A program made the position numbers and the translations under genes. From contig JAGVFQ010000066.1 in the NCBI GenBank assembly GCA_020057505.1, positions 1 through 46,111 on the forward strand: a stretch of 46,111 nucleotides of DNA, written 5' to 3'. Shown here piece by piece: positions 1,447 to 39,876 of this stretch. This DNA comes from Patescibacteria group bacterium. Lineage in GTDB: Bacteria; Patescibacteriota; Patescibacteriia; JAGVFQ01. Each line of letters starts with the position of its first letter. Position 1 is the first letter of the stretch. Below the pieces are notes generated by a model, which was given only the letters and a program-made list of their open reading frames with translations, did no database searches and was not told the origin of the DNA.

Positions 1447-1854
1447 TTATAATAGGAGATTGGATTGACCAGCCTTTAAATAAACAGTGGCGGTTTTGAA
1501 GATAGTTTTCAGCCAAACTGAATATTCATCCGATTCTTTTTCAGTAATTACCGACCCGCCATCATATAGATCACGATTCCTTTTCATTCTCATTCTATCA
1601 CCAATAACTTTAATGTCTCCGTTATTTAAAAATTCAGATAATTTTTCAATCAACTCAATATGATGTCCGGTCCTAGCTTTAATTCGCGAATGATTGAATG
1701 CGCAAACAGTAATTGCCAATTTAAGCAATGCATCGTAACAAAAAATAAATTTTACTTGGTTATCAGAGTTGTTTAAGGCAATATTCAAATCCCGACAGGC
1801 TGTCTGATAATAACGTTTGATCTGATTTTCGCTGAAAGAAAAAGGCTCAAACAT
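1447..1854 (-). CDS. HEPN-like putative toxin
   Basis: 135-aa helical protein with RNRDLY (Rx4Y, HEPN Rx4H-like), directly downstream of an MNT gene. Confidence 0.65.
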   Translation of the reverse strand: MFEPFSFSENQIKRYYQTACRDLNIALNNSDNQVKFIFCYDALLKLAITVCAFNHSRIKARTGHHIELIEKLSEFLNNGDIKVIGDRMRMKRNRDLYDGGSVITEKESDEYSVWLKTIFKTATVYLKAGQSNLLL

Positions 1855-1855
1855 T

Positions 1856-2401
1856 TTAAATTAATTTAATAAATTTATTTTTAAATATATGATTAATAAA
1901 CTCATCTTTAATCTTCAAACGTTTTTTATACTCTTTTTCAGTAAAATCAACCACATTGATTTCGCGTTTAATCTGACTTTGCAATTCTGATATTATACGC
2001 TGAACTTCGATGGAAGAATGATCACCAATCACCAATAAATCAATATCACTATCCTTGCCAAAATGACCCTTAGCATAGGATCCAAATATCATGGCTGATT
2101 TTAGCCCTTTAATCTGCTTAAGACTCTTAGTCAATCTTTCTTCCAAGCCAAAATTGGCGTTAAACATTTTTTTTACTTCGCTAAACAAGGGATATTTAGG
2201 ATTCAGAAAATAATACTTCTGTTTGCCTCTGAATTCCGAAGAAAAAAGACCTTCTCTTTCCAATTCATTCAATTTTTTAAATAAATTACCCGGATCAACT
2301 TTTAAAAGACGAGCCAATTCATTTATATAATGACTGGCTTTGATATTAATAAAATAATATCCCAAAAGTTTTATAACGATTTTCGAATTTAAATTAATCA
2401 T
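1856..2401 (-). CDS. HTH + minimal nucleotidyltransferase (MNT) antitoxin-like protein
   Basis: FGSYAKGHFGKDSDIDLLV = GS-x10-DxD pol-beta/MNT motif; N-terminal HTH (INELARLLKVDPGNL). Confidence 0.88.
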   Translation of the reverse strand: MINLNSKIVIKLLGYYFINIKASHYINELARLLKVDPGNLFKKLNELEREGLFSSEFRGKQKYYFLNPKYPLFSEVKKMFNANFGLEERLTKSLKQIKGLKSAMIFGSYAKGHFGKDSDIDLLVIGDHSSIEVQRIISELQSQIKREINVVDFTEKEYKKRLKIKDEFINHIFKNKFIKLI

Positions 2402-2404
2402 TGC

Positions 2405-2457
2405 TTATTGTTAATATTTACAATAATCATTGTATCACAGTGCAATAAATAGTACAA
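2405..2457 (-). promoter_or_regulatory. promoter and palindromic operator(s) for MNT/HEPN
   Basis: Minus strand TTGTAC-17 nt-TACAAT; palindromes ttattgttaatatttacaataa and attgtatcacagtgcaat overlap it. Confidence 0.55.
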
Positions 2458-2463
2458 TTGACT

Positions 2464-3945
2464 TTAAATCTTCCTCACTATCCCCTTCTCGGCATCCACT
2501 TCAACCAAATCGCCATCTTTAAAAACCTTAGTCGCGATTTTTGTGCCGATGACACAGGGAATTTTTAATTCGCGGGAAATAATGGCGGCGTGAATTGTAA
2601 CCCCTCCTTGTTCAGCTACGAGCGCCTTGGCCAACCGCAAAATCGGCACAAAATCCGGAGTGGTATTATTAACTACCAATATATCCCCTTTCTTCATTTT
2701 GTGAAATTCAGATGGATTTGAAATAACTTTAACCGTCCCCCGGGCAATACCCGGCGAGGCGACCGTACCTTTAAGTTCATTAATCTGCTTTTTTAATCCA
2801 ATTAAATTATTTAAATCTATCTTCTTAATATCTTTGCCCGTCAAAATCAAATGATCATTATTCTGGTTATAGATGAAATAAAGTTTGCCCGTGCGTTTTT
2901 TTAATAAATTTTTGTTAAACCTGCCAAGCAAAGCTGGCTCGACTTCTTCGGCTAGAAGCAAACCCGCTTCTTTGATAGTTAAGTCGGTTCGCCGCGCGAT
3001 TTCGGGAATAAATTTAGTAAAAACATAATGATTCATTCGTAAAACGCCTTCCTTGCGGCAATCCTGCCAATAGGTAAATTTCTCAATTAATTTTACAACA
3101 TTAATTATTTCTTTTGAACGGCCGATTTTTTTAAAAATAAATATTTTATCTTTTTTTAATCTTTCAATTCGTGACAATTCTTGCTTTAATTTTTTATCCA
3201 GATCTCGCTCTTTAGCCAATATTTTGGCTTTTCCAAAAAAATAATCTTTATCTAATATTTTGGCATGATGATAATTATTTTCTATCCAATAATAATTTTT
3301 CTGATGCTTATCTAGTAAATTATTAATTTTATCTTTCTTCCTGATTTTTTGAGCAATCTTCAATAAACTTAAATATTCTTTATTTACGAACGACGGATAA
3401 ACCGGCTGGGTTAGAATATTAAATACTTCTAAAACATCGGCTTTAATATCATGTTCGTAAAAATAATCTCTTAATATTACTAAAAACCAATCTTCCTTAC
3501 CGGCCGATAAAAAAGAATCAACTAATTGCGGCAAGGACATTTCTCGATTATACAAATACCAAGTATTATTATATAAATCAATAAATTCTTTATCGGCTAA
3601 TTCTTGAAATTTAATTTTATCTAATGAATCTAAACGGCTTTTAAATTTTTTCCAATCTTTCCGCCATTTCAATAACAACAAATCAGCGTTTTTAGTATTT
3701 GTTTTATTTATTTTCAATATCTGCTCGCGAAGCCGCACTAAATCATCGTTGTCCCAAAACCATACCCCATTTTCTTTATCAACAAAATTAATAGTGTATC
3801 GAAAACTATCGCCGTATCTGTCATTTAATATTTTGATACAGCCACGGCAAATTAAACTTATCGCCAATAAAGTACAATGGAAATTCTTACAATAGAATTC
3901 TTTTTGAGGATTATTTGCCTCTTTTATTATTTGTTCTAATTTCAT
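2464..3945 (-). CDS. PEP-utilising enzyme: helical N-terminal domain plus C-terminal phospho-His swivel (mobile) domain
   Basis: GTVASPGIARG...TTPDFVP...GGVTIHAAIISRELKIPCVIG...GDLVEVDA. Confidence 0.88.
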   Translation of the reverse strand: MKLEQIIKEANNPQKEFYCKNFHCTLLAISLICRGCIKILNDRYGDSFRYTINFVDKENGVWFWDNDDLVRLREQILKINKTNTKNADLLLLKWRKDWKKFKSRLDSLDKIKFQELADKEFIDLYNNTWYLYNREMSLPQLVDSFLSAGKEDWFLVILRDYFYEHDIKADVLEVFNILTQPVYPSFVNKEYLSLLKIAQKIRKKDKINNLLDKHQKNYYWIENNYHHAKILDKDYFFGKAKILAKERDLDKKLKQELSRIERLKKDKIFIFKKIGRSKEIINVVKLIEKFTYWQDCRKEGVLRMNHYVFTKFIPEIARRTDLTIKEAGLLLAEEVEPALLGRFNKNLLKKRTGKLYFIYNQNNDHLILTGKDIKKIDLNNLIGLKKQINELKGTVASPGIARGTVKVISNPSEFHKMKKGDILVVNNTTPDFVPILRLAKALVAEQGGVTIHAAIISRELKIPCVIGTKIATKVFKDGDLVEVDAEKGIVRKI

Positions 3946-3954
3946 AGCTAAAAT

Positions 3955-3972
3955 CTACAACGTCGTAATTGG
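3955..3972 (-). repeat. duplicated 3' end of the upstream PPDK_N gene (encodes PITTL*)
   Basis: CCA ATT ACG ACG TTG TAG versus CCG ATT ACG ACG TTA TAA at 4610..4627. Confidence 0.8.
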
Positions 3973-4018
3973 AAATAAGTCGTTTTTTATTCATAATTTT
4001 TCTGTGGATAAGTATTAA

Positions 4019-4046
4019 TTGACTTTTAGGCTTGGTTTGCTATAAT
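4019..4046 (+). promoter_or_regulatory. sigma70-type promoter convergent with the NYN gene
   Basis: TTGACT-16 nt-TATAAT with extended TG; perfect DnaA box TGTGGATAA at 4003..4011. Confidence 0.6.
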
Positions 4047-4051
4047 AATAA

Positions 4052-4111
4052 TAGAATTTCTATGAAAAAGTACCTTTTAAGGTTCCGTCCTTAAGCGGTG
4101 CTTTTTCTTTT
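4052..4111 (+). ncRNA. candidate ~60-nt hairpin sRNA antisense to the NYN 3' end
   Basis: Downstream of the promoter; stem gaaaaagtacc/ggtgctttttc with inner ttaagg/ccttaa, followed by T-run. Inference only. Confidence 0.35.
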
Positions 4112-4597
4112 ATATTCAAGCTTTTCTTGCAAATTATCCATAAAAATAATTTTTTCTTTCGCTGATCTTCTTAATAGTACCGAACAGTGGCCAATATAGG
4201 GGCTAATAACTTTTTTTAATTTATTATTTTCATATAAATATTTTACCAAACAATAAAAATCTCCATCGCTAGATACAATTACCGCCTGATCAAAGTTAGG
4301 ATATTCAATCATAGTATGTAAAACCAACTCGGCATCAACATTGCCCTTACAATTTCCATCCTTATTCAAAATTATTGGCTTAAAAATTATTAAAAAACCT
4401 GCTTCCTGCAAAGAAGTATACATAACTTCATTCCCCGGAATATAACCTAAAAATAAATAAGCTTTGGCTATATTGTATTTTTCCTTGAGATAAATTCTAA
4501 ACTTTTTATAATCTAATTTCCAATCCAAATCTTTCATTCCTAAATTAAGATTATTACTATCAACGAAAGAAAAATTATTTTCTTTGGCTTTAAACAT
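4091..4597 (-). CDS. NYN domain (LabA/DUF88, PIN-like) protein
   Basis: FVDSNNL, KGNVDAELV, SSDGDFYCLV acidic motifs. Confidence 0.88.
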   Translation of the reverse strand: MFKAKENNFSFVDSNNLNLGMKDLDWKLDYKKFRIYLKEKYNIAKAYLFLGYIPGNEVMYTSLQEAGFLIIFKPIILNKDGNCKGNVDAELVLHTMIEYPNFDQAVIVSSDGDFYCLVKYLYENNKLKKVISPYIGHCSVLLRRSAKEKIIFMDNLQEKLEYKRKSTA

Positions 4598-4609
4598 AAT
4601 TTAAAATAT

Positions 4610-5683
4610 TTATAACGTCGTAATCGGCCTTGATTGAACTATGTAGAATTTTTTACCTTCATAAGCCCACTCTATATCGCATGGAAATTTATAATGCTTT
4701 TCAATCTGCGCGCAGATTTTAGCCAGCCGCACGATTTCCTCACCAGTTAATTTCTGTTTCTCCTGCTGATTTTTTGGCACGCCAAGCCACTGATTGCCAG
4801 CTATTTTTTTACTTTTAATTTTTCTCACAATCATCTTCTCTTGCTTCGCGATATTAATATCAATCATTCGCCAATCTTTCTTGCTAAGAACATAGCTATC
4901 CGGTGTGATCTGGCCCGAGACAATCGCCTCGCCCAGACCCCAACCGGCTTCGATGATCATTTGATTTTTGTCTTTGGTCACCGGATGCACGGTAAAACAA
5001 ATGCCGGAAATTTCCGACTGGACCATTTTTTGCACCACGACGGCCACGGAGACTTTGCTCTGGCGCATGCCCTGTTCATTCCGATAAAAAATCGCCCGCT
5101 CGGTAAAAAGCGATGACCAGCATTTTTTCACGTTGCCGAGCAAATTGTCTTTCGTCGTATTAAGATAACTCTCGAGCTCCCCGGCCCAGCTCGCCGCGGA
5201 AGAATCTTCCGCCGTGGCGGAAGAACGAACAGCGACTAAAAAAGGCATTCGCGTTTTAATGTTATGGTGAGGCAATGTCATACTGAGCTTAGTCGAAGTA
5301 TCTCGAACCATGGCATTAAAACCCATGTCGCCCTTCGAGAACCTCAGGGTGACATTACTATTTGCGAGAGATTCATGCGCTTTTAAAATCTCCTCCTGCA
5401 AATCCTTAGGCATCCGCGCATCATGAATCAAATCACGGATAATCATCGAAACTTGATTGACCGAATTAATATCTTTATAATTAACCTTTTTTAATTGCGC
5501 TTCGATCTCTATGTTCAAATCCGTTTCTTCAAGAAAACAGTCAAACGCTTTAGCTAAAATCACAAACCCCAGTGGCACGGGAATTCCCGTCTGTGTCATT
5601 TCGCCGAGTGATGCGCCCTTCCCGCCGGCAATATGCGTGCTGGATTTATTTAATTCGAAAAAGGTTTTGATGTGATCAGGCAT
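4610..5683 (-). CDS. stand-alone PPDK_N/PEP-synthase-like ATP-grasp domain protein
   Basis: GGKGASLGEM, VAVRSSATAED, GLGEAIVSG, DIEWA, QSRPITTL. Confidence 0.92.
   Translation of the reverse strand: MPDHIKTFFELNKSSTHIAGGKGASLGEMTQTGIPVPLGFVILAKAFDCFLEETDLNIEIEAQLKKVNYKDINSVNQVSMIIRDLIHDARMPKDLQEEILKAHESLANSNVTLRFSKGDMGFNAMVRDTSTKLSMTLPHHNIKTRMPFLVAVRSSATAEDSSAASWAGELESYLNTTKDNLLGNVKKCWSSLFTERAIFYRNEQGMRQSKVSVAVVVQKMVQSEISGICFTVHPVTKDKNQMIIEAGWGLGEAIVSGQITPDSYVLSKKDWRMIDINIAKQEKMIVRKIKSKKIAGNQWLGVPKNQQEKQKLTGEEIVRLAKICAQIEKHYKFPCDIEWAYEGKKFYIVQSRPITTL
5274..5356. repeat. palindromic element read in frame inside the PPDK_N gene
   Basis: aatgtcatactgagcttagtcgaag...cttcgagaacctcagggtgacatt; encodes extra residues before VAVRSS. 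Confidence 0.7.
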
Positions 5684-5712
5684 ATGGTTTAATAATTTAT
5701 AATTTCTAATTT

Positions 5713-6975
5713 TTATTTCAACAATTCCAATGCCTTCGCCATCTGCGGATCTTTGTTGGCGTTATAATCTTCCTTGGTTAATTTAACTTCAATATCCGGC
5801 GCGATGCCTTGTTCGTTAATCGAACGACCATTGGGCGTGAGCCAATGAGCCACGGTAATCTTTACCGCTGAACCATCATCCAGCGTTTCCATTTCCTGCA
5901 CCGAACCTTTGCCAAAAGTCTTTTCGCCGACAAGAGTCGCTTTTTTATAATCCTGCAAGGCGCCCGCCACAATTTCCGACGCGGAAGCGCTGCCGGCGTT
6001 AGTCAATATTATTGTTTTATAATCTTTCAATCTGGTGCGTCCTTCTGCCGGATAATCAGTTTTTTCTTTATTGCCAAATTCCTCAAATACCACCGTTCCG
6101 TCTTTCACCCATTCGCTCGCAACAGCGACCGCCGTATCCAAAAATCCGCCCGGATTGTTCCGCAGATCGAGAATTATGCCTTTGGGATTTTTAATCAAAA
6201 TTTCTTGGACCACCTTTTCAAAATCAGCCATCGTGTCGCCATTAAAGTAAGAAAGTTTTATGGTGGCAATATTGTTTTTTATGGTTAAGGAAACGCTTTT
6301 TATTTCAATAACATCGCGCGTGATTTTATAATCTTTCAATTCATCAAGGCCATCGCGGCCGATAGTGAGAGTCACGTCCGTGCCTTTCGCGCCGCGAATT
6401 AAATTAGTGGCATAATCAAGAGCCATACCGGTCGTATCCAAGCCATCAATACCATAAATTTTATCGCTAGCTTTGAGGCCCGCTTTTTCTGCCGGCGTAT
6501 CTGGCAAAGGAGCGATAATAGTTAAACGATTGTTTTTAATACCAATTTCCGCGCCAATGCCTTCGAAGGAACCACTAAGTTCCTCGGTGAATTTTTGTGA
6601 AGTTTCCGGATCGAGATAGACCGAATATGGATCGCCCAAGGCCGCGACAATACCCGCGAGCGAACCGTAAAAAAGTTTGGTATCAACGACCGGCTGATCA
6701 ATATATTTATCTTTAACCAAATTCCAAACTTTCCAATAAAGGTCAAACGCCACGTCTTTGGACAAATAGTCTGGTAATTTTTCGTTTTGGTCCAAAACTT
6801 TGCCGCCCTCAACACTCGCAATCTCCTTTTTCACCATAATCTTTTCACCCACTACCAAACCGCCAAGAAAACTGCCAATAATTAAAAATATTACGAGATA
6901 GCCGACTATCCCGATTTTTAAAATATTCCTTACTGATTTTTTGCCGCCTTCACCTTGTATTTTTGTTTGAAACAT
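5713..6975 (-). CDS. ctpA: S41 C-terminal processing protease (PDZ)
   Basis: DPYS, FEGIG, LDLRNNPGG, SASASEIVAGALQD, TFGKGSVQ; start moved to ATG 6975 because the TTG extension is low-complexity repeat. Confidence 0.92.
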   Translation of the reverse strand: MFQTKIQGEGGKKSVRNILKIGIVGYLVIFLIIGSFLGGLVVGEKIMVKKEIASVEGGKVLDQNEKLPDYLSKDVAFDLYWKVWNLVKDKYIDQPVVDTKLFYGSLAGIVAALGDPYSVYLDPETSQKFTEELSGSFEGIGAEIGIKNNRLTIIAPLPDTPAEKAGLKASDKIYGIDGLDTTGMALDYATNLIRGAKGTDVTLTIGRDGLDELKDYKITRDVIEIKSVSLTIKNNIATIKLSYFNGDTMADFEKVVQEILIKNPKGIILDLRNNPGGFLDTAVAVASEWVKDGTVVFEEFGNKEKTDYPAEGRTRLKDYKTIILTNAGSASASEIVAGALQDYKKATLVGEKTFGKGSVQEMETLDDGSAVKITVAHWLTPNGRSINEQGIAPDIEVKLTKEDYNANKDPQMAKALELLK

Positions 6976-22599: not shown

Positions 22600-23883
22600 A
22601 TGAATAAGCGAATAAAAATTGATCTGCCCGAAAGGACGGAAAGAAGATATGTTATCCCGTCTCCTCAGAAATTTTTAGATAAAATTTCCTCTTTTATGGA
22701 ACGGAAAAAATTTTCCGATAATGAATATGTTCAGACTATATATTTTAATAATGACGAGCATACTCTCCCGTTTGATCTTTCAATAAAGGCCAGGCGCTAT
22801 CTGCCGCGTCTGCCCAGCCATCCGGTATTAGATGAAGGGCTATATTTTCTCGAACTTAAAATTGATAAAGGGGAATACAAACAAAAAGTCAGAATGGACG
22901 CCGCGAAAATCATTAACGAAGAATATTCTTTTTTGGAAAAAAATTTACGGCCTTATATTTTAGTTGAATATCATCGCGAGCATTATACTCTCAAAAATCA
23001 AGAAAAGGCCAGAGTGACGATTGATGACAATATAAAATATTTCTATCTCCCGCCTAATCAAAAAAAGTGGATTTTAATTGGCAAGGAAGAAGATTACGCC
23101 AGACTGGAAGTAAAAGAAAAAAGAAGCAATAAAAATTTTTCTATTTTAATTAAAAAAATACTCGAAGATTTTGATGTTCGCCCTATTATCTCAAAGAGAT
23201 TCACTTCCTATAATTTTCTTAACAAATATTTTCTAGCTAAAAATAAAATACATCTCTATAAAGAATTAAATGATTGCGAAATAGAATCTAAACTGGAAAT
23301 CAAAAATAAAATCGATCCGGAAACAGTTTTTCAAGAAATAAAACAATATTTTAAAAAAAATAATTCTAAATTCAAATTACCCAAGCATTTCCCCCGCACT
23401 CTCGAATCGGCATCAATAAATCGATATTGCAAAAATAAAAACGGCTTATTTAAAATATCGATGAAAGGAGATAAGATGAGAATAATTTTTAAAAGCAAAA
23501 AAGAAATTTTAAAAAACTCAAAAAAATTAACTTGTATTTTAAAAAGAAAAGAGAGAAAAGGTGATTATTTTTCGATTTGGTCAAAATCAATCGAGTCGGC
23601 GGAATTATTAGAAGAAATCAAGCGGAAGAAAAAATTTTTCTACATCGTCAATTCACTAACTAAAAGATTTTATCAGATTAGTTTAGATTACTGTTATAAT
23701 TATTTTAATAAAAACCTGCGCCAAATAGAAATCGAATACATCGGTAGATCCATAAAATTAAAAACAGCCGAAGAAAACAAAATTGTCGAAGATATCGCCA
23801 AAATTACTGAAATTTTATTGAAAAAATTCCCGGCGCTTCGCCCCAGTCAGCAAACCAAAGAAGAATGGCTGAGGATAAAGTAA
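22600..23883 (+). CDS. VTC-domain protein with a second CYTH-like (triphosphate tunnel) domain
   Basis: RTERRY, TIYF, KARRY, FLELK, YHRE, RVTID, LEVK; then EIESK...ISLD...QIEIEY...TKEEWL. Confidence 0.65.
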   Translation: MNKRIKIDLPERTERRYVIPSPQKFLDKISSFMERKKFSDNEYVQTIYFNNDEHTLPFDLSIKARRYLPRLPSHPVLDEGLYFLELKIDKGEYKQKVRMDAAKIINEEYSFLEKNLRPYILVEYHREHYTLKNQEKARVTIDDNIKYFYLPPNQKKWILIGKEEDYARLEVKEKRSNKNFSILIKKILEDFDVRPIISKRFTSYNFLNKYFLAKNKIHLYKELNDCEIESKLEIKNKIDPETVFQEIKQYFKKNNSKFKLPKHFPRTLESASINRYCKNKNGLFKISMKGDKMRIIFKSKKEILKNSKKLTCILKRKERKGDYFSIWSKSIESAELLEEIKRKKKFFYIVNSLTKRFYQISLDYCYNYFNKNLRQIEIEYIGRSIKLKTAEENKIVEDIAKITEILLKKFPALRPSQQTKEEWLRIK

Positions 23884-23904
23884 ATTTGGAATCTAAAAAA
23901 TTAA

Positions 23905-24544
23905 ATGAAAAAGAATTTAAATTTTTACGAAAATTTATATAACAGATTGAAAAAAACAAAATATACTTTTGGTTTGCCGCAAAAAGAATTAATAAAATTC
24001 ATGAATTCGGCTCGCTGGAAAAAAGCAAGAATTTTGGATCTAGGTTGTGGCGATGGCAGAAATATAATATTTTTAGCGTTAAAAAACTTAGCTGTTTGGG
24101 GAATTGATAACTCTGTTTCTGGTTTGAGAAAAATAAAAGAAAAAAACAAAAATAATCCACTTATTCAAAATATTCACTTAAAACAAGCAGATTTAAAAAC
24201 AATTAAATTAAAACAGCGCAATTATTTTGATTTAGTTATTTGTGTTTACACTTTTCATGAAATTGGACTAAATGGTGTAAAAAATATTATTAAACAAGCG
24301 AAACTTTCTACCAAACCACATGGGATAAATTACCTCGCCATTTTTATTCCCCAAAAAGGAACCTTCATCAGAAAAGAATGTTATTACCCCAATGAAAATG
24401 ATATTATTAAAATACAGGAATTGGAAGATTATAAAGAAAAAGAAAGTCTTTTTGACGCACAGCCATCCCATTCCTTATTCAAAAAGAAAAGAAATAAAGC
24501 ATAAACATTATGTTTGTCATTTATTTTTAGAAAAAATAAAATAA
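23905..24544 (+). CDS. class I SAM methyltransferase (TehB-like), probably frameshifted near 24410
   Basis: ILDLGCGDGRN; annotated frame stops at 24504, shifted frame gives YRNWKII...HSH...HKH to TAA 24544. Confidence 0.75.
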
Positions 24545-24554
24545 TTCTTTAAAT

Positions 24555-25118
24555 ATGGCTGAAGTAAAAATTTTAATCCAGGGCTATTTGATGGCTGATT
24601 TTAAAGATAAGAAAAAAGCCGGCACTTGTCCGACTATTTCTCTAATCCGCGACCAAGGAAAAAATATCGTTGTTGATCCAGGAACAGTCAAAGACCAAAA
24701 AATAATCAGAAACAAATTAAAAGCGGAGGGTTTAACCATAGATGATATTAACATCGTCGCTATCACTCATTCCCATCTGGACCATTACCGGAATATCGGC
24801 ATGTTTCCGCGGGCGAAAGCTTTGGATTACTGGGGCATCTGGGAAAGAGACAAGATTAAAAAATTACCCGCCCGATTCACGAACGACATTGAAATAACAA
24901 AAACTCCAGGCCATAGCTACGATGGTATCAGCCTTATAATTAAAACCAAGGAAGGTAAAATTGCCATTGTGGGCGATCTCTTTTGGAAAGAAAATTATCC
25001 CCAAAAAGATCCTTACGCCAGTGATCCAAAAAAACTAAAAACCAACCGCAAAAAAATTTTAGCTTTGGCTGATTGGATTATCCCCGGACACGGGGATATT
25101 TATAGAGTTAAAAAATAA
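24555..25118 (+). CDS. metallo-beta-lactamase-fold hydrolase
   Basis: VVDPG, THSHLDH, TPGHS, VGD, IPGHG. Confidence 0.9.
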   Translation: MAEVKILIQGYLMADFKDKKKAGTCPTISLIRDQGKNIVVDPGTVKDQKIIRNKLKAEGLTIDDINIVAITHSHLDHYRNIGMFPRAKALDYWGIWERDKIKKLPARFTNDIEITKTPGHSYDGISLIIKTKEGKIAIVGDLFWKENYPQKDPYASDPKKLKTNRKKILALADWIIPGHGDIYRVKK

Positions 25119-25119
25119 A

Positions 25120-25156
25120 TTGACAATATCCTTTGCCCGAATTATAATGAATTCGG
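25120..25156 (+). promoter_or_regulatory. consensus sigma70 promoter with inverted repeat around -10
   Basis: TTGACA (25120..25125)-17 nt-TATAAT (25143..25148); ccgaatt/aattcgg inverted repeat 25137..25156. Confidence 0.85.
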
Positions 25157-25160
25157 CTTT

Positions 25161-25247
25161 ATGTTGAACACTATAATTGGATTAAATATTACAAAAGACA
25201 AATTCAAAAAATTGGCGTTTTACCGCTCAAATATTAATATTTTCTAA
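25161..25247 (+). CDS. candidate 28-aa leader peptide MLNTIIGLNITKDKFKKLAFYRSNINIF
   Basis: Open frame between the promoter and a terminator that begins at its stop codon. Confidence 0.4.
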   Translation: MLNTIIGLNITKDKFKKLAFYRSNINIF

Positions 25248-25275
25248 AAATCTCGATAAAATCGGGATTTTTTGT
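25246..25275 (+). terminator. intrinsic terminator/attenuator in the 5' leader
   Basis: aaaaatctcgat-aaa-atcgggattttttgt. Confidence 0.6.
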
Positions 25276-25333
25276 ATACCCCCAACACCTACAACCTAAA
25301 AAGCTAAAGAGCTAACAAGCTACCACCTAATCT

Positions 25334-26314
25334 ATGCCCAAAACCTACGCACCCGAAGAATTGAAAAAAAGATTCAAAAAAGTAAACTGGGTTTTTGCCT
25401 ATGAAGAATTGCTAGCCGCCTATGACGAAAAAGCGAAACTCGTTATGCTGATTGAAGACTATATGAAAGGCGTTTATGCCGAAGCTTGGCGCGTTTATCA
25501 TTTTCCGAGAACCAGCCCCTTAGTCAAATACGCCAAACGAGAAGGCACAAAATCAATTTTTTATCTGAAAGAAGGCACAGCCAAAAAACTTCGCCTCGTC
25601 CCCTCTTTTGCTCCGATCGGCATCAAGCAGGTAATCGTGAGCGGGAATGAAATAAAAATACTTTATAGCGGCTTGGGCGGCGGCGGGGTGAGTGCGGCCT
25701 ATTGCCGAGGCCTCGCCAAGGGCGTGAAAAAGATCAAAGTTGTAAATGAAGCCGGCGGCAACCAGCATGGCGAAGCTATGGTGACGCTTCCCCGCTATCA
25801 TCATATGATTATCGGTATTGACGACACGGACAATGAAAAAGAAGGCGCCACATACGCTCTCGCTCATAATATAGCCTTGGCTATCAGTAATGATAAAAAT
25901 ATCCGCTATATCTCACATACTAATACCCAGCTCTATCCGGAAAATCCTTCGAAAACCAAAAACTGTATGAGCACGAGCATCGGCTTTCTCGTTCGGCCTG
26001 GCCTGGAAGACAAAATAATTAAATTTTTTGCGAAAGAATTAAAAGCAAAAACCTTGAGCCAAAATACGGCTATGGTCGTGCTCCGCGGATTTTTTATCCC
26101 GGAAAAATTAAAATTGTTTAGCCGACGATTAAGAACCAAATTTTTTACTAATCTCCCATACGCCAAACGGCTCGCCAAAGAGCTAAATTTGGAATGCCAT
26201 ATTATTACCGGCGAAAAGGGACTGATCGGCGCGCTCGGGGCCGTGAGTATGCACGACAATCCGGATCTCGCCGCCAGTCTGCCGCCCGGATTTGATAAGA
26301 TGGTAAAATGGTAA
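25334..26314 (+). CDS. mmp11: methanogenesis marker protein 11-like (TiaS N-terminal-related domain)
   Basis: RTSPLV, GLGGGGVSAAYCRGLAKGV, IIGIDDTD...GATY, QLYPENPSKTKNC, GLIGALGA; recognised from memory of the family. Confidence 0.8.
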   Translation: MPKTYAPEELKKRFKKVNWVFAYEELLAAYDEKAKLVMLIEDYMKGVYAEAWRVYHFPRTSPLVKYAKREGTKSIFYLKEGTAKKLRLVPSFAPIGIKQVIVSGNEIKILYSGLGGGGVSAAYCRGLAKGVKKIKVVNEAGGNQHGEAMVTLPRYHHMIIGIDDTDNEKEGATYALAHNIALAISNDKNIRYISHTNTQLYPENPSKTKNCMSTSIGFLVRPGLEDKIIKFFAKELKAKTLSQNTAMVVLRGFFIPEKLKLFSRRLRTKFFTNLPYAKRLAKELNLECHIITGEKGLIGALGAVSMHDNPDLAASLPPGFDKMVKW

Positions 26315-26347
26315 AAATTACTATTAAATAAACTCACTATTTAAAAT

Positions 26348-26376
26348 TTGCTAAATTACCCCATTTAATCTAAAAT
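26348..26376 (+). promoter_or_regulatory. putative promoter of the FecR-domain gene
   Basis: TTGCTA-17 nt-TAAAAT. Confidence 0.5.
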
Positions 26377-26405
26377 AGATTATAATAATTATTAATTATC
26401 CACTT

Positions 26406-27962
26406 ATGAAATTCCTCAAATCCCTCTTTTTTATCGTAATTTTAGGGGCAATCGGCGCGGCCGCCTATTTTTATCTGCCAATATTGCGACAGGATAGTTC
26501 TAATAGCAACACCAATATCAACATGCCTATCGGCGCTAATCTTGCCTATGTCGAGGGAATCGCTGAATATCGCGATCCCGCAGGCAGCTGGAAAGAAGCT
26601 AAGGCGGATCTGAATTTACTCCAAGGATCATCGCTTAAAATTACAGGTCCGGGCCGAGCCATTATCAATCTCGATGACGGTAGCGCTCTACGCATCGGCG
26701 CCGATTCATCAATGACGCTTGAAAAACTTGATCCCAATAATATTATCGTTGTTAACAATCGCGGCGAACTTTATTTAAGGATCGCAAAATCAAGCCGAAT
26801 ATTTGAAGTCAAATCCGACGGCATTACTTACGAATCAATGGGCACGGCTTATAAAACAATCAATAAAGACAAAACCCAGGGCGTGGAAGTCTATGAAAGC
26901 AAAGTAAAAATTATTGGCGCCGAAGACGCCGAAGTCATCGTTGATCAAGGGAAAAAATATTACTTAGCTAATGAAACCGATCAATCAAGCGTTAAAGTGA
27001 TAAAAGAACTTAAGCTGGAAGAAATCAAAAAAGATGAATTTGTTATGTGGAACAAAACCCAAGACGAGTCGCAAACTGAATTCAAAGACGAGATGGGCAT
27101 TCTCTCTGATCTCACCCCCCCTGAATTATCCATCACCTCTCCTGAAAATGGCGCGAAGACCAAAGAGTCAAGCATATTAATAGAAGGCAAGACTGACGCT
27201 GAAGCGAAAATTTTAATCAACAATGCGGAAGTCAAAAATGAAAGCGGCGTTTTTTCTTACAAAGCAAATTTAAACGCCGGTGAAAATAAAATAAAAATCT
27301 CAGTGGTTGATACTGCCGGAAATAAAACCGAAAAAGAACTGACTATTACCAAAGTTGTCATGGAGCCGGCTGTAACAAACAACACAAGCATCAAGCTCAG
27401 CGCCGTTGTCACCACGGGCGGCATTAAATTCAGCTGGACAGTCGGCGGAATCAATGTCGATCAGGGATTCAAACTCATAAAAAGCTTGGAAATTAATCCG
27501 GTCTATCCGGGCAATGATTATCAATACCTGACCGAAAGCGGCACGAGAAGCTATACTTGGAAAATAAGCGACGGCAAAACATATTATTTCCGAGTCTGCC
27601 AATATCTTGGCGGCAAATGCGGCGTTTACAGTAATAATGTCAAAATCAAAGCGCCATTGGCGGAAACTAATAATACTTCCGGTGTTGTTAAATCAATCAA
27701 TCTAAGCGCCATTAGCGGCGCCACAGTGAGCTGGACGCTAAACGGCTATTCCAGCCAAGGCTTCAAAGTCGTTTGGTCAGAAACTTCCGGGCCAACTTAT
27801 CCCACGAGATCCGCTGATCAATATAATTATTACAGCGACCCCGGCCAGAGAACGAGCACACTCCAAGCCTTCAACGGTTCCGGCCTCTATTACGTCCGCG
27901 TTTGCGAATATCTCGGCGGCTCCTGCGGCGTTTATTCGAACCAAATCCAAATCAATCTCTAA
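26406..27962 (+). CDS. membrane-anchored FecR-domain protein with Ig-like and two Cys-containing repeat domains
   Basis: RAIINLDDGSALRIGADS, GT, VEVYESKV (FecR); PPELSITSP...DTAGN (Ig); 2x YY.RVC.YLGG.CGVYSN. Confidence 0.75.
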   Translation: MKFLKSLFFIVILGAIGAAAYFYLPILRQDSSNSNTNINMPIGANLAYVEGIAEYRDPAGSWKEAKADLNLLQGSSLKITGPGRAIINLDDGSALRIGADSSMTLEKLDPNNIIVVNNRGELYLRIAKSSRIFEVKSDGITYESMGTAYKTINKDKTQGVEVYESKVKIIGAEDAEVIVDQGKKYYLANETDQSSVKVIKELKLEEIKKDEFVMWNKTQDESQTEFKDEMGILSDLTPPELSITSPENGAKTKESSILIEGKTDAEAKILINNAEVKNESGVFSYKANLNAGENKIKISVVDTAGNKTEKELTITKVVMEPAVTNNTSIKLSAVVTTGGIKFSWTVGGINVDQGFKLIKSLEINPVYPGNDYQYLTESGTRSYTWKISDGKTYYFRVCQYLGGKCGVYSNNVKIKAPLAETNNTSGVVKSINLSAISGATVSWTLNGYSSQGFKVVWSETSGPTYPTRSADQYNYYSDPGQRTSTLQAFNGSGLYYVRVCEYLGGSCGVYSNQIQINL

Positions 27963-27967
27963 AATAG

Positions 27968-28006
27968 AATCAAAAAACTGTCTTGCAAAGAGACAGTTTT
28001 TTGATT
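27968..28006. terminator. bidirectional intrinsic terminator
   Basis: aatcaaaaaactgtct-7 nt-agacagttttttgatt between convergent genes. Confidence 0.85.
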
Positions 28007-28119
28007 TAAAATTGATAGCACAATAGGGGTTTGGGGGCGTAAATTGCGCCTAATCCGCGTTAAGTCTGCATAAGCCTTCTTTTAGATATTTAAAATTAAA
28101 CAAACTTAAAGGCATAAAA

Positions 28120-29187
28120 CTACCACTTAACTATCTTTTTTATTAAGAGCCAATACAAATTAAAAATCGGATTAACAAAATATTTCAAGATGGGGTTGTT
28201 AATCTCTTGAAATTCAATCTTGCCTGTAAACAGCCGAACTACTTCGTGATCTTTTGCTTTCCTGATTTTAATAATCTGAAAACGCCTTTTAACCAAATAG
28301 GGCCAGTGCCAAGGATTAATAATCCAGAAATAACATTTAATTTTTTCTCCCCAGAAACCGTTTATAAAAGAAAAAACGAATAAGCCCGCTTCCATAATCA
28401 AAAAAGCCGGCAAGATCAAAATTAAAGTCGCGATTTTGTAATTCGTAAGAAGGCAGATAAAACGATTGCGCTCCATCCAATAATACTTCTTTATGCTTTT
28501 GGAAAAACTGTACTTATGATAAATTACAGAACCAGCCGCCAAAACCGATTTATAGCCAGCAAGCCTCAACCGCCACCCCAAATCCAAATCTTCGTGATAC
28601 ATATAAAATTTATCGTCGAACAGACCGATTTCTTTCAAAGCGCTAATCTGCCACAAGCTCGCCGCTCCCGATGTATAGGCAATTTCCTTATTCATCCCAA
28701 ACTGATGACTAGTGACTAATGACTGATGACCACCTGCGTATCCAAACCCCAAAAAATGCAAATTATTACCCAAGGAATTAACCTTATCCTTCTCGGGCCA
28801 CAGCATCAAGAGCGACTGCGCCGCGCCAACTTGATTATCACTATCTAAGGCTTTAGTCGCTTCAATCAAAAAATCAGGGTCAACAATCGTGTCCTGATTC
28901 AAAAGATAAATGTAATCGAAATCTCTATCTAGCGCCCATTTAATCCCGATATTATTTCCGGCGGCAAAACCAAGGTTCTTTTTATTCAAAATAATCTCAT
29001 ATCGCTCCGGATTTTTTTTAGTATATCTTTTTATTAAATCCAACGAATGATCAACCGAAGCATTATCAACTAAAATAATTTTTAATAAATCTCGCGGGTA
29101 ATTAATTCTGTCCAAACTATTAAAACAATCTCGCAAATATGCTTCACCGTTATAAATAACAATTATGATCGCTATCTTCTTTTTCAT
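28120..29187 (-). CDS. glycosyltransferase family 2 (WbbL/rhamnosyltransferase-like)
   Basis: VDNASVD, NLGFAAGNN, LLNQD, GLFDDKFYMYHEDLD. Confidence 0.9.
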   Translation of the reverse strand: MKKKIAIIIVIYNGEAYLRDCFNSLDRINYPRDLLKIILVDNASVDHSLDLIKRYTKKNPERYEIILNKKNLGFAAGNNIGIKWALDRDFDYIYLLNQDTIVDPDFLIEATKALDSDNQVGAAQSLLMLWPEKDKVNSLGNNLHFLGFGYAGGHQSLVTSHQFGMNKEIAYTSGAASLWQISALKEIGLFDDKFYMYHEDLDLGWRLRLAGYKSVLAAGSVIYHKYSFSKSIKKYYWMERNRFICLLTNYKIATLILILPAFLIMEAGLFVFSFINGFWGEKIKCYFWIINPWHWPYLVKRRFQIIKIRKAKDHEVVRLFTGKIEFQEINNPILKYFVNPIFNLYWLLIKKIVKW

Positions 29188-36138: not shown

Positions 36139-39100
36139 TTAGTAGGACAAGCTTCCACCTACGAGAGGCAGATTCTTGGTCGCTGGATGAGTGCTATTTG
36201 CGCTACCAGTCCTATTGCCGACATCAGAGCTAGAGCCATCCCAGTAAGTCACACCATAAGTGGTGGTGGGATTTGTAGTGGCGTTAGAAACTGACATCTG
36301 ATAGGTGTTGGTAGAAATTCCGCCAGTAGTATCGCCAAAGATTCTAATGACTTTGGTAACACCGGCAGAGATTTGCAAATTGCCGTCTGAAGTCCATTGA
36401 CCAGCACAACCATCACCGGTAGCGCCAGCGCCGGCAATTGTACAAGCGCCTGTGCCAGCAGCTGAACCGATTGATATGGCTGAGTTTCCTAAGACCACCG
36501 TATCGCCATTATACGTATTAGCGTTAGCTGACGTAACCGTGGCATAAGTGGTATTAAGATCGTCGCTCTTAACGGTCAAACTGCCCGTAGCCGAGAAATT
36601 AGCAACAGCAGTACCGCTATTGACTAATTCAAGCTCGCGGATAGTGATATCATCACCGGTCGCCTGCAAGTTGAGTCTTAAGACTTCTTTGCCCGCGCCA
36701 GCTGTCTGAGTGCCTGAAGGCGTAGCCGCATTCAAGCTCACAGTCAAGATACCTTTGTGGATACTGAAACCATTGGAACCGAATACCTGAGAAGCAGCCA
36801 CTGTACCAAGGCTGTTAATGGTATTCATGAGAATAGTAGCACCTGATTGCTGACCAGTGGCAATGATGTAGTAATCATTGGCTGTGGCAGCGCCCGCGCT
36901 CCATAAGGTATCTTCCGAAGCTGTACCCGGTTGACCGGCTGTACCATCAGCAGATTCAATACCAATTTGGAAATTGGCTCCAGTGCTGGTAGTTACCTGA
37001 GTCTTGTCCGGTATATCCATCTTGATGGTAATAGTGCTATAGCTGTCTTTGGGAATAACCAAAGTACCGCTATTCAAAACTACTGGGGTCATGCCATTCG
37101 CATCAAGAGTATAACCGGCGGTATTGCCGATGAGAACGCCATTGGCATAAAGATAAACTTTAGACACATTGGCTCTCGTGCATTCAGTACCACCCTGGGT
37201 ATTGTTACCGCAGAAAATATCGAGTACCGAGACATCAATCGGTTCATAAGAAGCAGTGAATTTATACTTCATTACTTCATTGCCGGTTGAAGAAGAAACA
37301 AGCTGGGCCGCTGAAGGCATATCAGCTGATTTCTCAATTTTCAACAAACCTTTGGCCTGGATTGTCTGGACTTGGCCAATACCGGATACTCCTTTCGATC
37401 CGGCGGCTAAGGTGTTGCCTGTAACTTTACCAGTTGCAACTGCATCACCGACTGCCGCGACTCTGAATCTATGGTCAGTACCAGTCGCTGAAACAATACT
37501 GCCTTTCAGTGTTAAGCGTGAAGAAGTATTCATGGCAACAACAACAGGTGTCTGGAAAGTGAAAGTGACCGTGCAGGTGCCAGCGGCAGAGTTGGTCAAA
37601 GCCGCGGTTGAATTTGAAGTCGGCAATTGGATAATCGCGGCTCCGGCCACGGTATTATCCTGGATGCCCCACAAAGTCAAATTGTTAACACCTGAGCAGT
37701 CCGTGCCGCCGCCACTCATTGTGTCGGTAAGCATTAATGAACTGACTCGAACATCTTCACCGCCCGCTGACGCGTCAAGGTCAAGAGTGGAGAAAGTTTG
37801 CTGTTGAGCGTTAACTACCAAATTGGCAGCCGCGGGAGTAGCCGCGGTAATCATACTTAAGAAAGCAGCCTTAACTGTCTGCGTATTGCCGGTAACAGCA
37901 GCGGATGGAGGAACGGTAGTACCGGTTGAAGTAGTATAAGTACTCTTGCCGGAATTAGCGCCCTTGGCTGTAATCTTATTCGCCGCCATATCAGCATGGA
38001 TTGTGTCATTGGCTACAGTTGATGAACTTACATTGGCTTTAATTATAACTACAGTGGTGCCAATCGGCAGAGTATAGGCATCAGTAAAGGTTACTGTGTC
38101 TGTACCGGCGATATCAGCAATACTCGCATCGCGGTCTTTCGGACCGGCGAGAATGGCGCCCGTGGCGCTATTGTACAAAGTAAAGCTGGTAAATTTGCCG
38201 ACAGTAGCTGTAACAGTCGTATAATTGATAATAGTCTGGCTGACATTGACTGGTTCGCCATCAACCTTGACATCTAAAGTCGTCAAAGCTACTTGTGTCG
38301 CGCCCTGAGCAATATTGCCCGTGGCAGGAGTCAAAGCGCTCTTGATAACTGTCAAATAGCCCTGATTAATGGTTTGGGTCTGGCAAAGCTTATTGGTCGC
38401 GCCGACCATACAAGTCGCGCCAGCGCTGCCATCAGTGACCGCTACTTCAAAGCCATAGGTCTGACCTAAACCTCTAACAGTAAAGGTCGTGCCATCATAG
38501 ACATCAAAGGAAACAGTTCTGCCTGAACCGCTGCCAGCGATGCTAGCTTTGATTGAAAGGTCAGCTGAACCGCCCTTATCAATGCTAACTGTTAAATTCT
38601 GGAAAGTAGCTCGGCCATTACTGTCTAAACCGGCGAGGGTCGCGATCGTCTGGCCAGAAGTATCATTGACCAATTTGATATCCTTGACATCAGAATTGGA
38701 GGCTGTGCCATTTTTGATGGCAGTTACGGAATTAATCAAAACCGCTTCAGCCGAAGTAGTCGCTAAATGAACCTGAGTAAATCGGACATCGGTCGCGTTG
38801 GAATCAACGCCGCTATCCGCCGTCGGGTTCAGGGCGCCACGAGTAATCGTGAGGCCGCCGATGGTGACATTGGCAACAGTCATAGTGTTGCCATTGATTG
38901 GGAAAGTGCCGGCAACGGTAGAAGTGGTGGTAATATCAGTGGCCGCTGTAATTCCCAACATATGCATATCAGCGACGAAGGTCGCGCTAATATCAGCCGC
39001 GATTACTACCGTAACCGGAGTTCCGGCATTAACGGTAATTGGGCTATTGGATAAATTAAAGGTGGCCTGATGAACTGAACTCAAAGTCTGTGAAGTGCCC

Positions 39101-39876
39101 TTCTGGACGCCATCAACATATAATTTGATAGCTGAAAGGCGGATATCAGCGCCAAGACCAGTTCTGGTCACTTTCAAACTGGTAACAGAGGAGGTACCGC
39201 CGCTAGCAGTTAAAACAACCTTGGTAAAGGTGACATTGCTCGCGCCGATTGGGACTGAAGTGGAAGCTGGGGAATCAGAAGCCAAAGCGACTGATAATTG
39301 GCCGGCCGCTACTGTAGTCAAATTTTTATCGACGTTAATCGAAGTGGCTGCTGTTTGAGCGGTAACTACATTGAAATCAGCTGAAGAGGTGACATTCGCG
39401 CCAATTGTATAATTGGTAAAAAATGCATCTGAGACATCGTCAATCATTGTATTCCAAGTAGTTCCATACAAAGACATAGCAATCGCTTCGCTCTGTACCC
39501 AGCGCAATGAACCATTCGCCGCAACGGCGTAAACCTTGGGGTCGGTGGTAATCTTTACCATTTTGACACCGGGTTTGTAGGTGACATTGCCGCCGATTGT
39601 GATGGCAGCTAATTCCGCGTCGGTAATTGTTTTAACCGTGCTGAAATCAGCGTACCAAGTCTTGTAGGTCTTCTCGTTCGGGAAAACGTATCTCTTGCCA
39701 TCAGCGCCATAGTAGTAGACGGCTGCTGTGCTCGCCTTGATCAGGTCTCCGGAGGTCATAGTGGCCGCCTGAGCTGATAAAGGGATGAGAGCCGCTACGC
39801 CGATTGACCAAGCAATGGTCGTCACGGCGACGCTAACAGTCAAGGCTCGTTTTCCTTTTTTTATTAGGTCTGTCAT
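36139..39876 (-). CDS. 1245-aa secreted S-layer-like/major surface protein
   Basis: Signal peptide ending AQA, Thr/Ala/Ser/Gly-rich repeated beta domains, AAGGAG RBS at 39887..39892. Confidence 0.75.
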   Translation of the reverse strand: MTDLIKKGKRALTVSVAVTTIAWSIGVAALIPLSAQAATMTSGDLIKASTAAVYYYGADGKRYVFPNEKTYKTWYADFSTVKTITDAELAAITIGGNVTYKPGVKMVKITTDPKVYAVAANGSLRWVQSEAIAMSLYGTTWNTMIDDVSDAFFTNYTIGANVTSSADFNVVTAQTAATSINVDKNLTTVAAGQLSVALASDSPASTSVPIGASNVTFTKVVLTASGGTSSVTSLKVTRTGLGADIRLSAIKLYVDGVQKGTSQTLSSVHQATFNLSNSPITVNAGTPVTVVIAADISATFVADMHMLGITAATDITTTSTVAGTFPINGNTMTVANVTIGGLTITRGALNPTADSGVDSNATDVRFTQVHLATTSAEAVLINSVTAIKNGTASNSDVKDIKLVNDTSGQTIATLAGLDSNGRATFQNLTVSIDKGGSADLSIKASIAGSGSGRTVSFDVYDGTTFTVRGLGQTYGFEVAVTDGSAGATCMVGATNKLCQTQTINQGYLTVIKSALTPATGNIAQGATQVALTTLDVKVDGEPVNVSQTIINYTTVTATVGKFTSFTLYNSATGAILAGPKDRDASIADIAGTDTVTFTDAYTLPIGTTVVIIKANVSSSTVANDTIHADMAANKITAKGANSGKSTYTTSTGTTVPPSAAVTGNTQTVKAAFLSMITAATPAAANLVVNAQQQTFSTLDLDASAGGEDVRVSSLMLTDTMSGGGTDCSGVNNLTLWGIQDNTVAGAAIIQLPTSNSTAALTNSAAGTCTVTFTFQTPVVVAMNTSSRLTLKGSIVSATGTDHRFRVAAVGDAVATGKVTGNTLAAGSKGVSGIGQVQTIQAKGLLKIEKSADMPSAAQLVSSSTGNEVMKYKFTASYEPIDVSVLDIFCGNNTQGGTECTRANVSKVYLYANGVLIGNTAGYTLDANGMTPVVLNSGTLVIPKDSYSTITIKMDIPDKTQVTTSTGANFQIGIESADGTAGQPGTASEDTLWSAGAATANDYYIIATGQQSGATILMNTINSLGTVAASQVFGSNGFSIHKGILTVSLNAATPSGTQTAGAGKEVLRLNLQATGDDITIRELELVNSGTAVANFSATGSLTVKSDDLNTTYATVTSANANTYNGDTVVLGNSAISIGSAAGTGACTIAGAGATGDGCAGQWTSDGNLQISAGVTKVIRIFGDTTGGISTNTYQMSVSNATTNPTTTYGVTYWDGSSSDVGNRTGSANSTHPATKNLPLVGGSLSY
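39486..39752. repeat. 267-bp coding repeat, copy 2
   Basis: Matches 33536..33802. Confidence 0.95.

Follow-up and report, generated by a model that had tools for sequence, protein, structure and literature searches.

The window, by which we mean the whole 46,111-base stretch analysed here (contig JAGVFQ010000066.1, C13 in our numbering, which it spans completely), carries on its plus strand an intact gene, mmp11, for a 326-residue protein of the methanogenesis marker 11 family (TIGR03280, methan_mark_11 in NCBIfam). A first-pass annotation, made from the letters of the window alone, had described it as a full-length homologue of this archaeal protein in a bacterium resembling the candidate phyla radiation (CPR), possibly acquired from a host. 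The family assignment and the bacterial setting proved right; the suggested host origin was not supported, the gene falling into a bacteria-only clade. The gene and the parts of its product are as follows.

25334..26314, plus strand: mmp11-family gene, intact, 326 aa, stop codon included (ATG-started open reading frame (ORF), TIGR03280 score and AlphaFold2 (AF2) model).
25334..25792, plus strand: N-terminal alpha/beta domain, residues 1-153, family-specific (separate fold model, structure and profile searches).
25670..25726, plus strand: Gly-rich strand-loop-helix G113-L-G-G116-G-G118-V119 ... R125 ... G130-V131 (conservation, AF2 model).
25796..26287, plus strand: TiaS-type kinase module (TCKD and ferredoxin-like domain), residues 155-318 (VIA-align, Foldseek, profile search of the PDB).
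25820..25852, plus strand: catalytic-core motif D163-D164-T165-D166 ... G171-A172-T173 (profile alignment to TiaS, conservation).
25952..25966, plus strand: K207-T208-K-N210-C211 motif (conservation; its K-T aligns with K-T in TiaS).

Against TIGR03280 the protein scores 295.5 bits (E 3.5e-88, curated cut-off 255.8), with residues 23-315 covering profile positions 2-291 of 292 in one stretch, which bears out the full-length homologue first proposed; a search of the whole genome with the same profile recovered the same locus. The motifs by which the protein had been recognised are all present, namely GLGGGGVSAAYCRGLAKGV (residues 113-131), GIDDTD (161-166), KTKNC (207-211) and GLIGA (296-300), and the ATG start is common to the closest homologues. 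The AF2 model, built on a 36-sequence alignment, reached a predicted local distance difference test (pLDDT) of 92.7 and a predicted template modelling score (pTM) of 0.90. Models, structure alignment and the profile of the N-terminal domain (N-domain) agree on a two-domain build, in which the family-specific N-domain is followed by the TiaS-like TCKD and ferredoxin-like domain; archaeal marker 11 (TIGR03280, 'DUF1743 domain-containing protein' in some records) has the same build and about the same length. Pfam recognises TiaS_TCKD on residues 159-218 (37.8 bits, cut-off 27) and no further domain, and no TilS or PP-loop family (TIGR02432, PF01171) matches the protein at E ≤ 1. All the sequence and structure criteria tested place the protein in TIGR03280; it is neither a TiaS nor a TilS and counts as a new member of a known, uncharacterised family. 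Its presence in CPR bacteria is already visible in public annotation, where one record reads 'methanogenesis marker protein 11 [Candidatus Levyibacteriota bacterium]' and JGI names these bacterial proteins 'methanogenesis imperfect marker protein 11'. A literature search turned up no paper on marker 11 or TIGR03280 among the matches listed; by their titles and abstracts, the listed papers on mmp11 in methanogens deal with Methanococcus maripaludis and general methanogen genomics and not with marker 11, and one paper reports marker protein 1, not 11, in CPR.

The C-terminal half is where the protein resembles TiaS. VIA-align superposed residues 155..318 of the model on positions 0..252 of the 417 in TiaS chain 3amt_A (Z 20.6, root-mean-square deviation 2.0 A, 155 aligned residues, 19% identity) and gave Z 15.9 with 3u02_A, and the best Foldseek E-value for the module was 2.9e-8. 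A search of the PDB with the family profile likewise found 3u02 (E 1.1e-12) and the TiaS entries (E ~3e-8), at profile positions 152/158-305. The first of these, a structural-genomics entry for a fragment of Pyrococcus furiosus TiaS with a 252-residue chain, is the best sequence-profile match among solved structures (positions 158-305) and consists of the kinase and ferredoxin-like part only, with no counterpart of marker-11 residues 1-153. The profile alignment pairs D163-D164-T165-D166 with D8-D9-T10-D11 of Archaeoglobus fulgidus TiaS, and T173 with its T18; in TiaS these are, as reported in 2011, the metal/ATP motif and the autophosphorylated threonine respectively. D163, T165, D166, G171, A172 and T173 are invariant in the family alignment. 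The protein therefore shares with TiaS (PDB 3amt, 3amu, 3au7, 4rvz, 5xob) the TCKD and ferredoxin-like domains, the DDTD motif and the Thr18 position, and the relation to TiaS that had been proposed stands for this module. It does not extend to the whole enzyme: the full TiaS model NF040849 gave 22.5 bits, over residues 158-306 only, against a cut-off of 600, and, whereas TiaS grips its tRNA by an OB-fold and a zinc-ribbon domain, neither of these has a counterpart in the protein, which ends at residue 326, 8 residues past the aligned part, and has the new N-terminal domain instead.

That N-terminal domain, modelled alone from 63 sequences (residues 1-153, pLDDT 93.7), found no convincing solved relative. 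The best VIA-align hit among 48,161 chains had Z 5.0, below the noise level of the tool, with all other chains scoring lower than 5, and the best Foldseek E-value was 0.089, with 0 rows at E ≤ 0.001; this lack of a match does not prove a new fold. The ESM Atlas, queried with the same residues, returned a single match (0.78), to an archaeal cluster of the marker-11 family. Its profile, run against 1.84 billion representatives, gave 119 matches at E ≤ 0.001, of which the full-length ones were proteins of 280-373 aa with the domain at the front and the rest were fragments or long repeat-type matches. A dozen or so long proteins matched in many short stretches, and the two of these that were scanned (P0178, P0182) are unrelated repeat proteins; fused forms were sought among the longer proteins (572-2000 aa) and none was found at E ≤ 1e-5, which is weak evidence. 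Judged from these matches, the domain appears to occur only in the marker-11 architecture, repeat noise apart. In the AF2 model the Gly-rich motif lies between a strand (106-114) and a helix (116-127), and the loop is anion-hole-like; the N-domain stands in place of the tRNA-holding domains of TiaS. Two beta-beta-alpha-beta-beta units can be picked out by eye in the N-domain; an internal duplication was rejected, as hhalign of the two halves gave a probability of 0.8%.

Conservation was assessed over 118 proteins, 64 bacterial-type and 54 archaeal-type. Thirty-two positions are kept at ≥95% in both clades (E41, W52, the Gly-rich loop, R125, G141/G142, DxTD, GAT, H195, QLxP, TxNC, S242, T245 and GxxGA), so that every catalytic-looking motif of archaeal marker 11 is common to the bacterial copies. 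G113, G116, G118, V119 and R125, all within this set, form the most conserved feature of the N-domain, and T208, N210 and C211 of the KTKNC motif are kept to the same degree. Four positions are fixed differently in bacteria and archaea: 46 (G/C), 57 (F/Y), 95 (I/A) and 174 (Y/W), the first being Cys in 96% of archaeal and Gly in 97% of bacterial members. The two sides also differ in charge: the bacterial members have a median isoelectric point (pI) of 9.23, with 53 of 64 above 8, whereas the archaeal ones are acidic to neutral (median 6.03, 6 of 54 above 8).

The genome that carries the gene amounts to 1,009,896 bases (1.01 Mb) in 66 contigs, is 95.6% complete with 1.3% contamination, and lies within the range of the sampled genomes of its class and phylum (0.6-1.3 Mb). 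Genes on both sides of mmp11 are bacterial, among them a MurA-type EPSP synthase, an S41 Ctp protease, a rhamnose pathway, an ECF sigma factor, glycosyltransferases and phosphoenolpyruvate (PEP)-utilising parts, and those of its close homologues that carry names belong to Levyibacteriota, Daviesbacteria and Portnoybacteria; the bacterial, CPR-like setting described earlier is thus confirmed. The genome encodes the bacterial ribosomal protein L9, and a search for L30, whose control matched 13 of 14 genomes, came back empty; L30 is not known from the CPR. The codon score of mmp11 sits at the genome's 59th percentile, and its GC content is 0.453, against a gene mean of 0.412 (sd 0.052).

We compared the locus, over 23500-28500, with an independent assembly, in the form of contigs, of the only public run matching the stretch, from which this DNA may have come. 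A single 2,743-base record there spans 24341-27083 without a difference and takes in the 3' end of a methyltransferase gene, the complete MBL and mmp11 genes and the initial third of a FecR-like gene. The independent assembly breaks at 24341-24370 and at 27054-27083, with no record bridging either; a 56-base record joins these two sites in inverted orientation, and the record depths are uneven (143, 280 and 472). The inverted join could be a strain variant, with inversion or inverted duplication of the 2.7-kb mmp11 segment, or an amplification chimera. An artefact, in which an archaeal fragment was joined into a bacterial contig or the bin was contaminated, would account for the unbridged breaks, the inverted join and the depths, and is nonetheless scarcely credible. 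On the 2,743-base record the gene stands together with the MBL gene before it and portions of the genes on either side, and both breaks fall within ORFs that read through and have homologues spanning the same places, the FecR-like protein at residues 216-226 (G015 35-429, G003 37-375, G016 5-415) and the methyltransferase at residues 146-155 (G028 12-169, G014 8-159, G027 26-160). These homologues come from other genomes of the class; in addition, mmp11 stands among bacterial genes at 13 further bacterial-type loci from other assemblies, and its codon usage is native. Contig continuity had been raised as a point to check, and a chimeric assembly is not supported: a chimera behind the mmp11 locus is very unlikely.

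Among 61 genomes of the class only this one has a TIGR03280 match above the cut-off, and among 401 of the phylum only two do, this genome and G072. A word-indexed protein search returned 131 homologues, of which the best 120 of 131 were listed; the top ~64 of the matches listed are of bacterial type, at 42-84% identity, and the archaeal ones start at ~43%, so that bacterial and archaeal copies are ≤ ~43% identical among the matches listed. A quick IQ-TREE of 118 of these 120 proteins (two under 280 aa left out; unrooted, no outgroup) split 64 rows from 54 with an approximate likelihood-ratio (SH-aLRT) support of 100, the six bacterial-labelled proteins falling on one side (6/6) and the five archaeal-labelled on the other (5/5). 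A second, careful IQ-TREE was made of 54 rows, namely 34 full-length representatives, 19 word-search proteins and the query, leaving out fragments, repeat matches, P0149 and P0171. Here the bacterial clade (17 of 54 rows, support 100/99) is one spoke among at least five archaeal ones, with a long stem and identities within it down to ~42%. The divergent members that the profile search contributed score 147-234 bits, below the family cut-off, and their clusters are named Korarchaeum, Verstraetearchaeota/Methanomethylicia, Archaeoglobales, Euryarchaeota/Methanogenium and, in one case, 'Syntrophus sp.', a metagenome-assembled genome (MAG). Named archaeal members belong to Methanobacteriaceae, Methanomicrobiales, Methanoperedens, ANME, Archaeoglobales, Korarchaeum and Verstraetearchaeota, and the labels in the bacterial clade are Levyibacteriota, Daviesbacteria, Portnoybacteria and Saccharibacteria. 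One 266-kb contig (L002) is labelled 'uncultured Gammaproteobacteria bacterium', a doubtful label, as its genome is ~1.1 Mb and its Mmp11 (72% identical) groups with the CPR clade. The cross-domain relationship of marker 11 that had been proposed is supported by these trees, in which the single bacterial clade means one transfer event or one split. In the four loci closest to the query (L002, L009, L010, L011) Mmp11 is 72% identical to it and all 16 of 16 flanking orthologue-like genes are at 26-65%, which points to strong constraint, to movement among CPR lineages later than their divergence, or to both.

Gene neighbourhoods were compared over 84 loci (the query region and 83 others), in which ORFs were called and BLAST-clustered and lineage was assigned by Mmp11. 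They comprise 52 loci of Methanobacteriaceae type (MB), 10 of G2, 8 of G7 and 14 of bacterial type; many are short, and 3 kb or more of upstream sequence is present in 34, 7, 5 and 9 of them respectively. The neighbours are, by lineage:

MB, upstream of mmp11 (number of loci): hacA (29), hacB (30), aksF (33), SufS-like (21), ribH (44).
MB, after mmp11: opposite-strand GT2 (34), purE (23), ubiD (15).
G2, upstream: hacA (6), hacB (5), ALS-like thiamine pyrophosphate (TPP) enzyme (8); a radical SAM gene directly upstream in 2.
G2, other: GMC-type flavoprotein downstream (8 loci); Mmp4/MtxX nearby (6 loci).
G7: the same radical SAM family as in G2 (MSMEG_0568 type, weak LipS2 likeness) directly downstream (4 loci).
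G7, locus L017: two LipS1-like genes.
Bacterial, query contig, in order: VTC-domain protein, methyltransferase, MBL, mmp11, FecR-like secreted protein.
Bacterial, L002, L009, L010, L011: gatB ... mmp11, then miaA and miaB on the other strand.
Bacterial, L003: type IV pilus genes near mmp11.
Bacterial, G072: glycolysis genes near mmp11.
Bacterial, L014, L018: CtlX and an arginine-deiminase-like gene near mmp11.

In archaea mmp11 thus stands with coenzyme B genes in conserved arrays, which we saw in L019, L022, L026, L031 and L063 (around 1-6000) and in the 52 MB loci, the order being hacA-hacB-(ALS-like TPP enzyme)-mmp11-(GMC flavoprotein), with Mmp4/MtxX nearby, or hacA-hacB-aksF-(SufS-like)-ribH-mmp11. 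hacAB and aksF are known early genes of coenzyme B synthesis (PMC3087415). The hac/aks representatives score just below the methanogen-specific cut-offs (HacA_Meth 548.7 vs 550), and leucine paralogues exist. Lipoyl-synthase-like radical SAM genes adjoin archaeal mmp11 at L017 (2364-3389 and the next ORF) and follow it in L050, L052, L070 and L085. Not one of the archaeal neighbours listed above was seen in the 14 bacterial-type loci, among them hacA/hacB, aksF, the SufS-like gene, ribH, the TPP enzyme, Mmp4 and the lipoyl-synthase-like radical SAM genes. Of the four bacterial carriers none yielded McrA (TIGR03256, with a control that matches both methanogens) or Mmp4, and only one (G452) yielded an aconitase-family gene of hacA type; these counts support the suggestion that the bacterial role is independent of methanogenesis. 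The genome studied here has its tmk-gatB ... miaA-miaB block apart from mmp11, on contig C49, and an unrelated 402-aa ORF occupies the slot there. In the two related bacterial loci (L014:3969-4940 and L018:6986-8212) mmp11 is next to the gene for CtlX, a citrulline-utilisation hydrolase (333.6 bits vs a cut-off of 334), and an arginine-deiminase-like gene, which is worth noting since agmatine, used by TiaS, derives from arginine.

Taken as a package, the account we lean towards is of a native gene in an old bacterial clade, whose product would carry out a TiaS-type, ATP-dependent activation of a substrate other than tRNA-Ile2. The chemical step by itself we put forward tentatively, as somewhat doubtful. 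By analogy with TiaS, the DDTD site would bind ATP, a carbonyl or carboxylate oxygen of a substrate seated on the N-domain would be phosphorylated, and the phosphorylated oxygen would be displaced by the attack of an amine; ATP activation of an oxygen followed by amine attack, in two steps, is the chemistry that the two proteins may have in common, although marker 11 would not act on C34 of tRNA-Ile2. Its substrate is in all likelihood a small molecule. In archaea the genes around mmp11 suggest coenzyme B, through acid-chain elongation, a possible decarboxylase and sulfur-handling enzymes. The bacteria cannot feed the coenzyme B pathway and have lost the archaeal Cys; their substrate is probably a different one, chemically alike.

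Several observations count against this account. The mechanism leans on homology to one characterised enzyme, the N-domain yields no hint of its ligand, and no neighbour of mmp11 is conserved across the 14 bacterial-type loci. The tRNA-modification genes miaA (L002, L009, L010) and miaB (L002, L009, L010, L011) do adjoin it, and the basic bacterial members could hint at a polyanionic substrate such as RNA, although the genome's long-ORF proteome is also basic (median 8.51). As for the age and direction of the clade, the midpoint root of the first tree falls exactly between bacteria and archaea, the backbone of the second is weak (36/76), and one sub-cut-off protein in a deep archaeal group (P0191) is labelled as from the 'Syntrophus sp.' MAG, on a 6.3-kb contig, and is either mis-binned or a second bacterial occurrence.

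On origin, the bacterial clade most likely reflects one old archaea-to-CPR transfer, followed by loss in most lineages, exchange among them, or both; this direction is favoured because the other branches are all archaeal, TACK included, an argument from distribution and not from the root. A recent pick-up by an episymbiont from its methanogen host, as the first-pass annotation had it, would fit the typical occurrence of the family in methanogens and the fact that some Patescibacteria live on them (PMC10936435 and PMC12281837). We find it most improbable. Among the matches listed the protein is at most ~43% identical to an archaeal member and 72-84% identical to other bacterial ones, the labels within the clade come from several CPR groups, the gene looks native in codon usage and GC, and the protein has no supported methanogen sister; with no nesting in any sampled methanogen group and a long stem, the tree indicates that the gene is not a recent gift from a host. 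A broad, vertically inherited bacterial clade had also been considered as an outcome that would undo the transfer, and what was found comes close to it: the clade is diverse and bacteria-only, but too rare (2/401) to be broadly vertical. The family might instead have arisen in bacteria and moved the other way, or the two clades might be two sides of a primordial root, as the midpoint between them (in a tree with no outgroup) and the depth of the bacterial clade would allow; we regard this as unlikely, since the bacterial clade is one spoke among at least five archaeal ones, including Korarchaeum- and Verstraetearchaeota-labelled lineages, only two phylum genomes carry the gene, and the midpoint root moves among the archaea once the divergent archaeal members are added.

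On function, an RNA-modifying enzyme like TiaS, acting on some other tRNA or rRNA nucleotide common to methanogens and these bacteria, seems to us rather unlikely, though it is a serious rival. The sole characterised relative of the kinase module modifies tRNA, as described in PMC11938285, mmp11 lies back to back with miaA/miaB in 3-4 close relatives, the bacterial members are basic, and RNA would be an obvious substrate common to both domains. The tRNA-binding OB and zinc-ribbon domains of TiaS are missing, however, and no known RNA-binding fold came up for the N-domain, whose best match, at Z 5.0, is within noise; the archaeal members, acidic to neutral, lie among cofactor genes and not RNA genes, the miaA/miaB block is here on another contig, and the basic pI follows the bias of the genome. 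Unlikely too, in our judgement, is that marker 11 is an unassigned late coenzyme B enzyme using TiaS-style ATP activation, repurposed in the bacterial clade. In its favour, mmp11 follows hacA-hacB in two archaeal lineages and is adjoined by a lipoyl-synthase-like radical SAM gene in two, and the Cys kept by 96% of archaeal members is lost in bacteria. The late steps (the amide bond to threonine and the phosphorylation) are ATP-dependent and not known to be assigned, and no paper assigning them turned up in the literature search described above. The carboxylate of 7-mercaptoheptanoate could be phosphorylated and then attacked by the amine of threonine, or threonine itself could be phosphorylated; the bacterial enzyme would then be a repurposed acyl-amino-acid ligase or kinase that takes some other acid or amine, or one that a host provides.

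A replacement of TilS or TiaS in reading AUA was also considered and rejected. The first-pass annotation had pointed to tilS as a gene to look for, and a profile search did not find it in the genome; this absence has no bearing on mmp11, since TilS is above cut-off in 0 of 61 genomes of the class (weak PP-loop matches in 16 of 61) against one with mmp11, and G072 carries mmp11 plus a true TilS at 203 bits. ARAGORN called 50 tRNAs, among them Ile(GAU), Ile(UAU) and only two CAU tRNAs; with no spare CAU tRNA among the 50, the TiaS substrate tRNA-Ile2(CAU) was not found in this genome, where at 95.6% completeness a missed tRNA is possible. Methanogens are known to carry both TiaS and marker 11. 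For the replacement speak only the missing TilS, the TiaS-like kinase module and the use of ATA for 18% of Ile codons, and with Ile(UAU) present, TilS above cut-off in none of the 61 class genomes and both genes together in G072, we give it practically no credence. The class as a whole looks like a case of TilS-free AUA decoding; an Ile(UAU) solution is described for Mycoplasma mobile in PMC3575796. The tRNA sites lie on contigs C10 (9203-9278) and C36 (10379-10611), and ARAGORN also calls tRNAs with anticodon CUA ('Pyl') and UUA ('Stop') and a tRNA-Asp(AUC), which are either possible suppressors or false calls.

Marker 11 is a conserved 'methanogenesis marker' protein of unknown function, and its conserved bacterial branch shows that its chemistry is useful outside methane metabolism. 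This is an old cross-domain family, which a reading by name would take for a fresh host transfer; the analysis adds to it a clade confined to bacteria, excludes host transfer and TilS replacement as readings, and draws a testable functional lead from the archaeal contexts. The search for a substrate is narrowed by a catalytic core that is the same in both domains, by the four differing positions and by coenzyme B neighbours that occur only in archaea, and the CPR carriers offer a small, simple genetic background in which to conduct it.

Upstream of the gene lie two signals on the plus strand:

25120..25148, plus strand: sigma-70-type promoter-like site TTGACA-17-TATAAT, 12/12 (consensus match only), in the 215-bp spacer after the upstream gene.
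25245..25273 (read by eye), plus strand: A-tract, hairpin and U-tract resembling a terminator, inside the leader, past the promoter-like site and ahead of the ATG.

The proposal that the gene is under a bacterial promoter is at best half upheld: the perfect consensus is there, and a terminator-like hairpin lies between it and the ATG, so that the site may drive mmp11, a short RNA or an attenuated leader. The hairpin is kept in both the minimum free energy and centroid folds of 25155-25340, with a z-score of only -1.6 for the whole leader, and a weaker promoter-like site (9/12 matches) lies at 25234-25262. By eye, no obvious Shine-Dalgarno motif precedes the ATG, and Rfam gave only sub-threshold matches on the leader (PsrR1 26 bits vs 42, Trp leader 20.8 vs 41, rimP 23 vs 47). 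With the hairpin ~100 nt past the promoter-like site, 25120-25273 could be a short RNA or an attenuator.

Elsewhere in the window, a 1,245-aa ORF (36139-39876, minus strand) has no Pfam match at E ≤ 1e-5 and lies where GC is 0.47-0.49, against ~0.39 for the contig. On the same strand, a PPDK_N (AMP/ATP-binding) ORF (4610-5683) and a PEP-utilisers mobile-domain ORF (2464-3945) have an NYN-domain ORF (4091-4597) between them, as though, over 2464-5683, a gene had been inserted into a PEP-utilising enzyme and split it in two.

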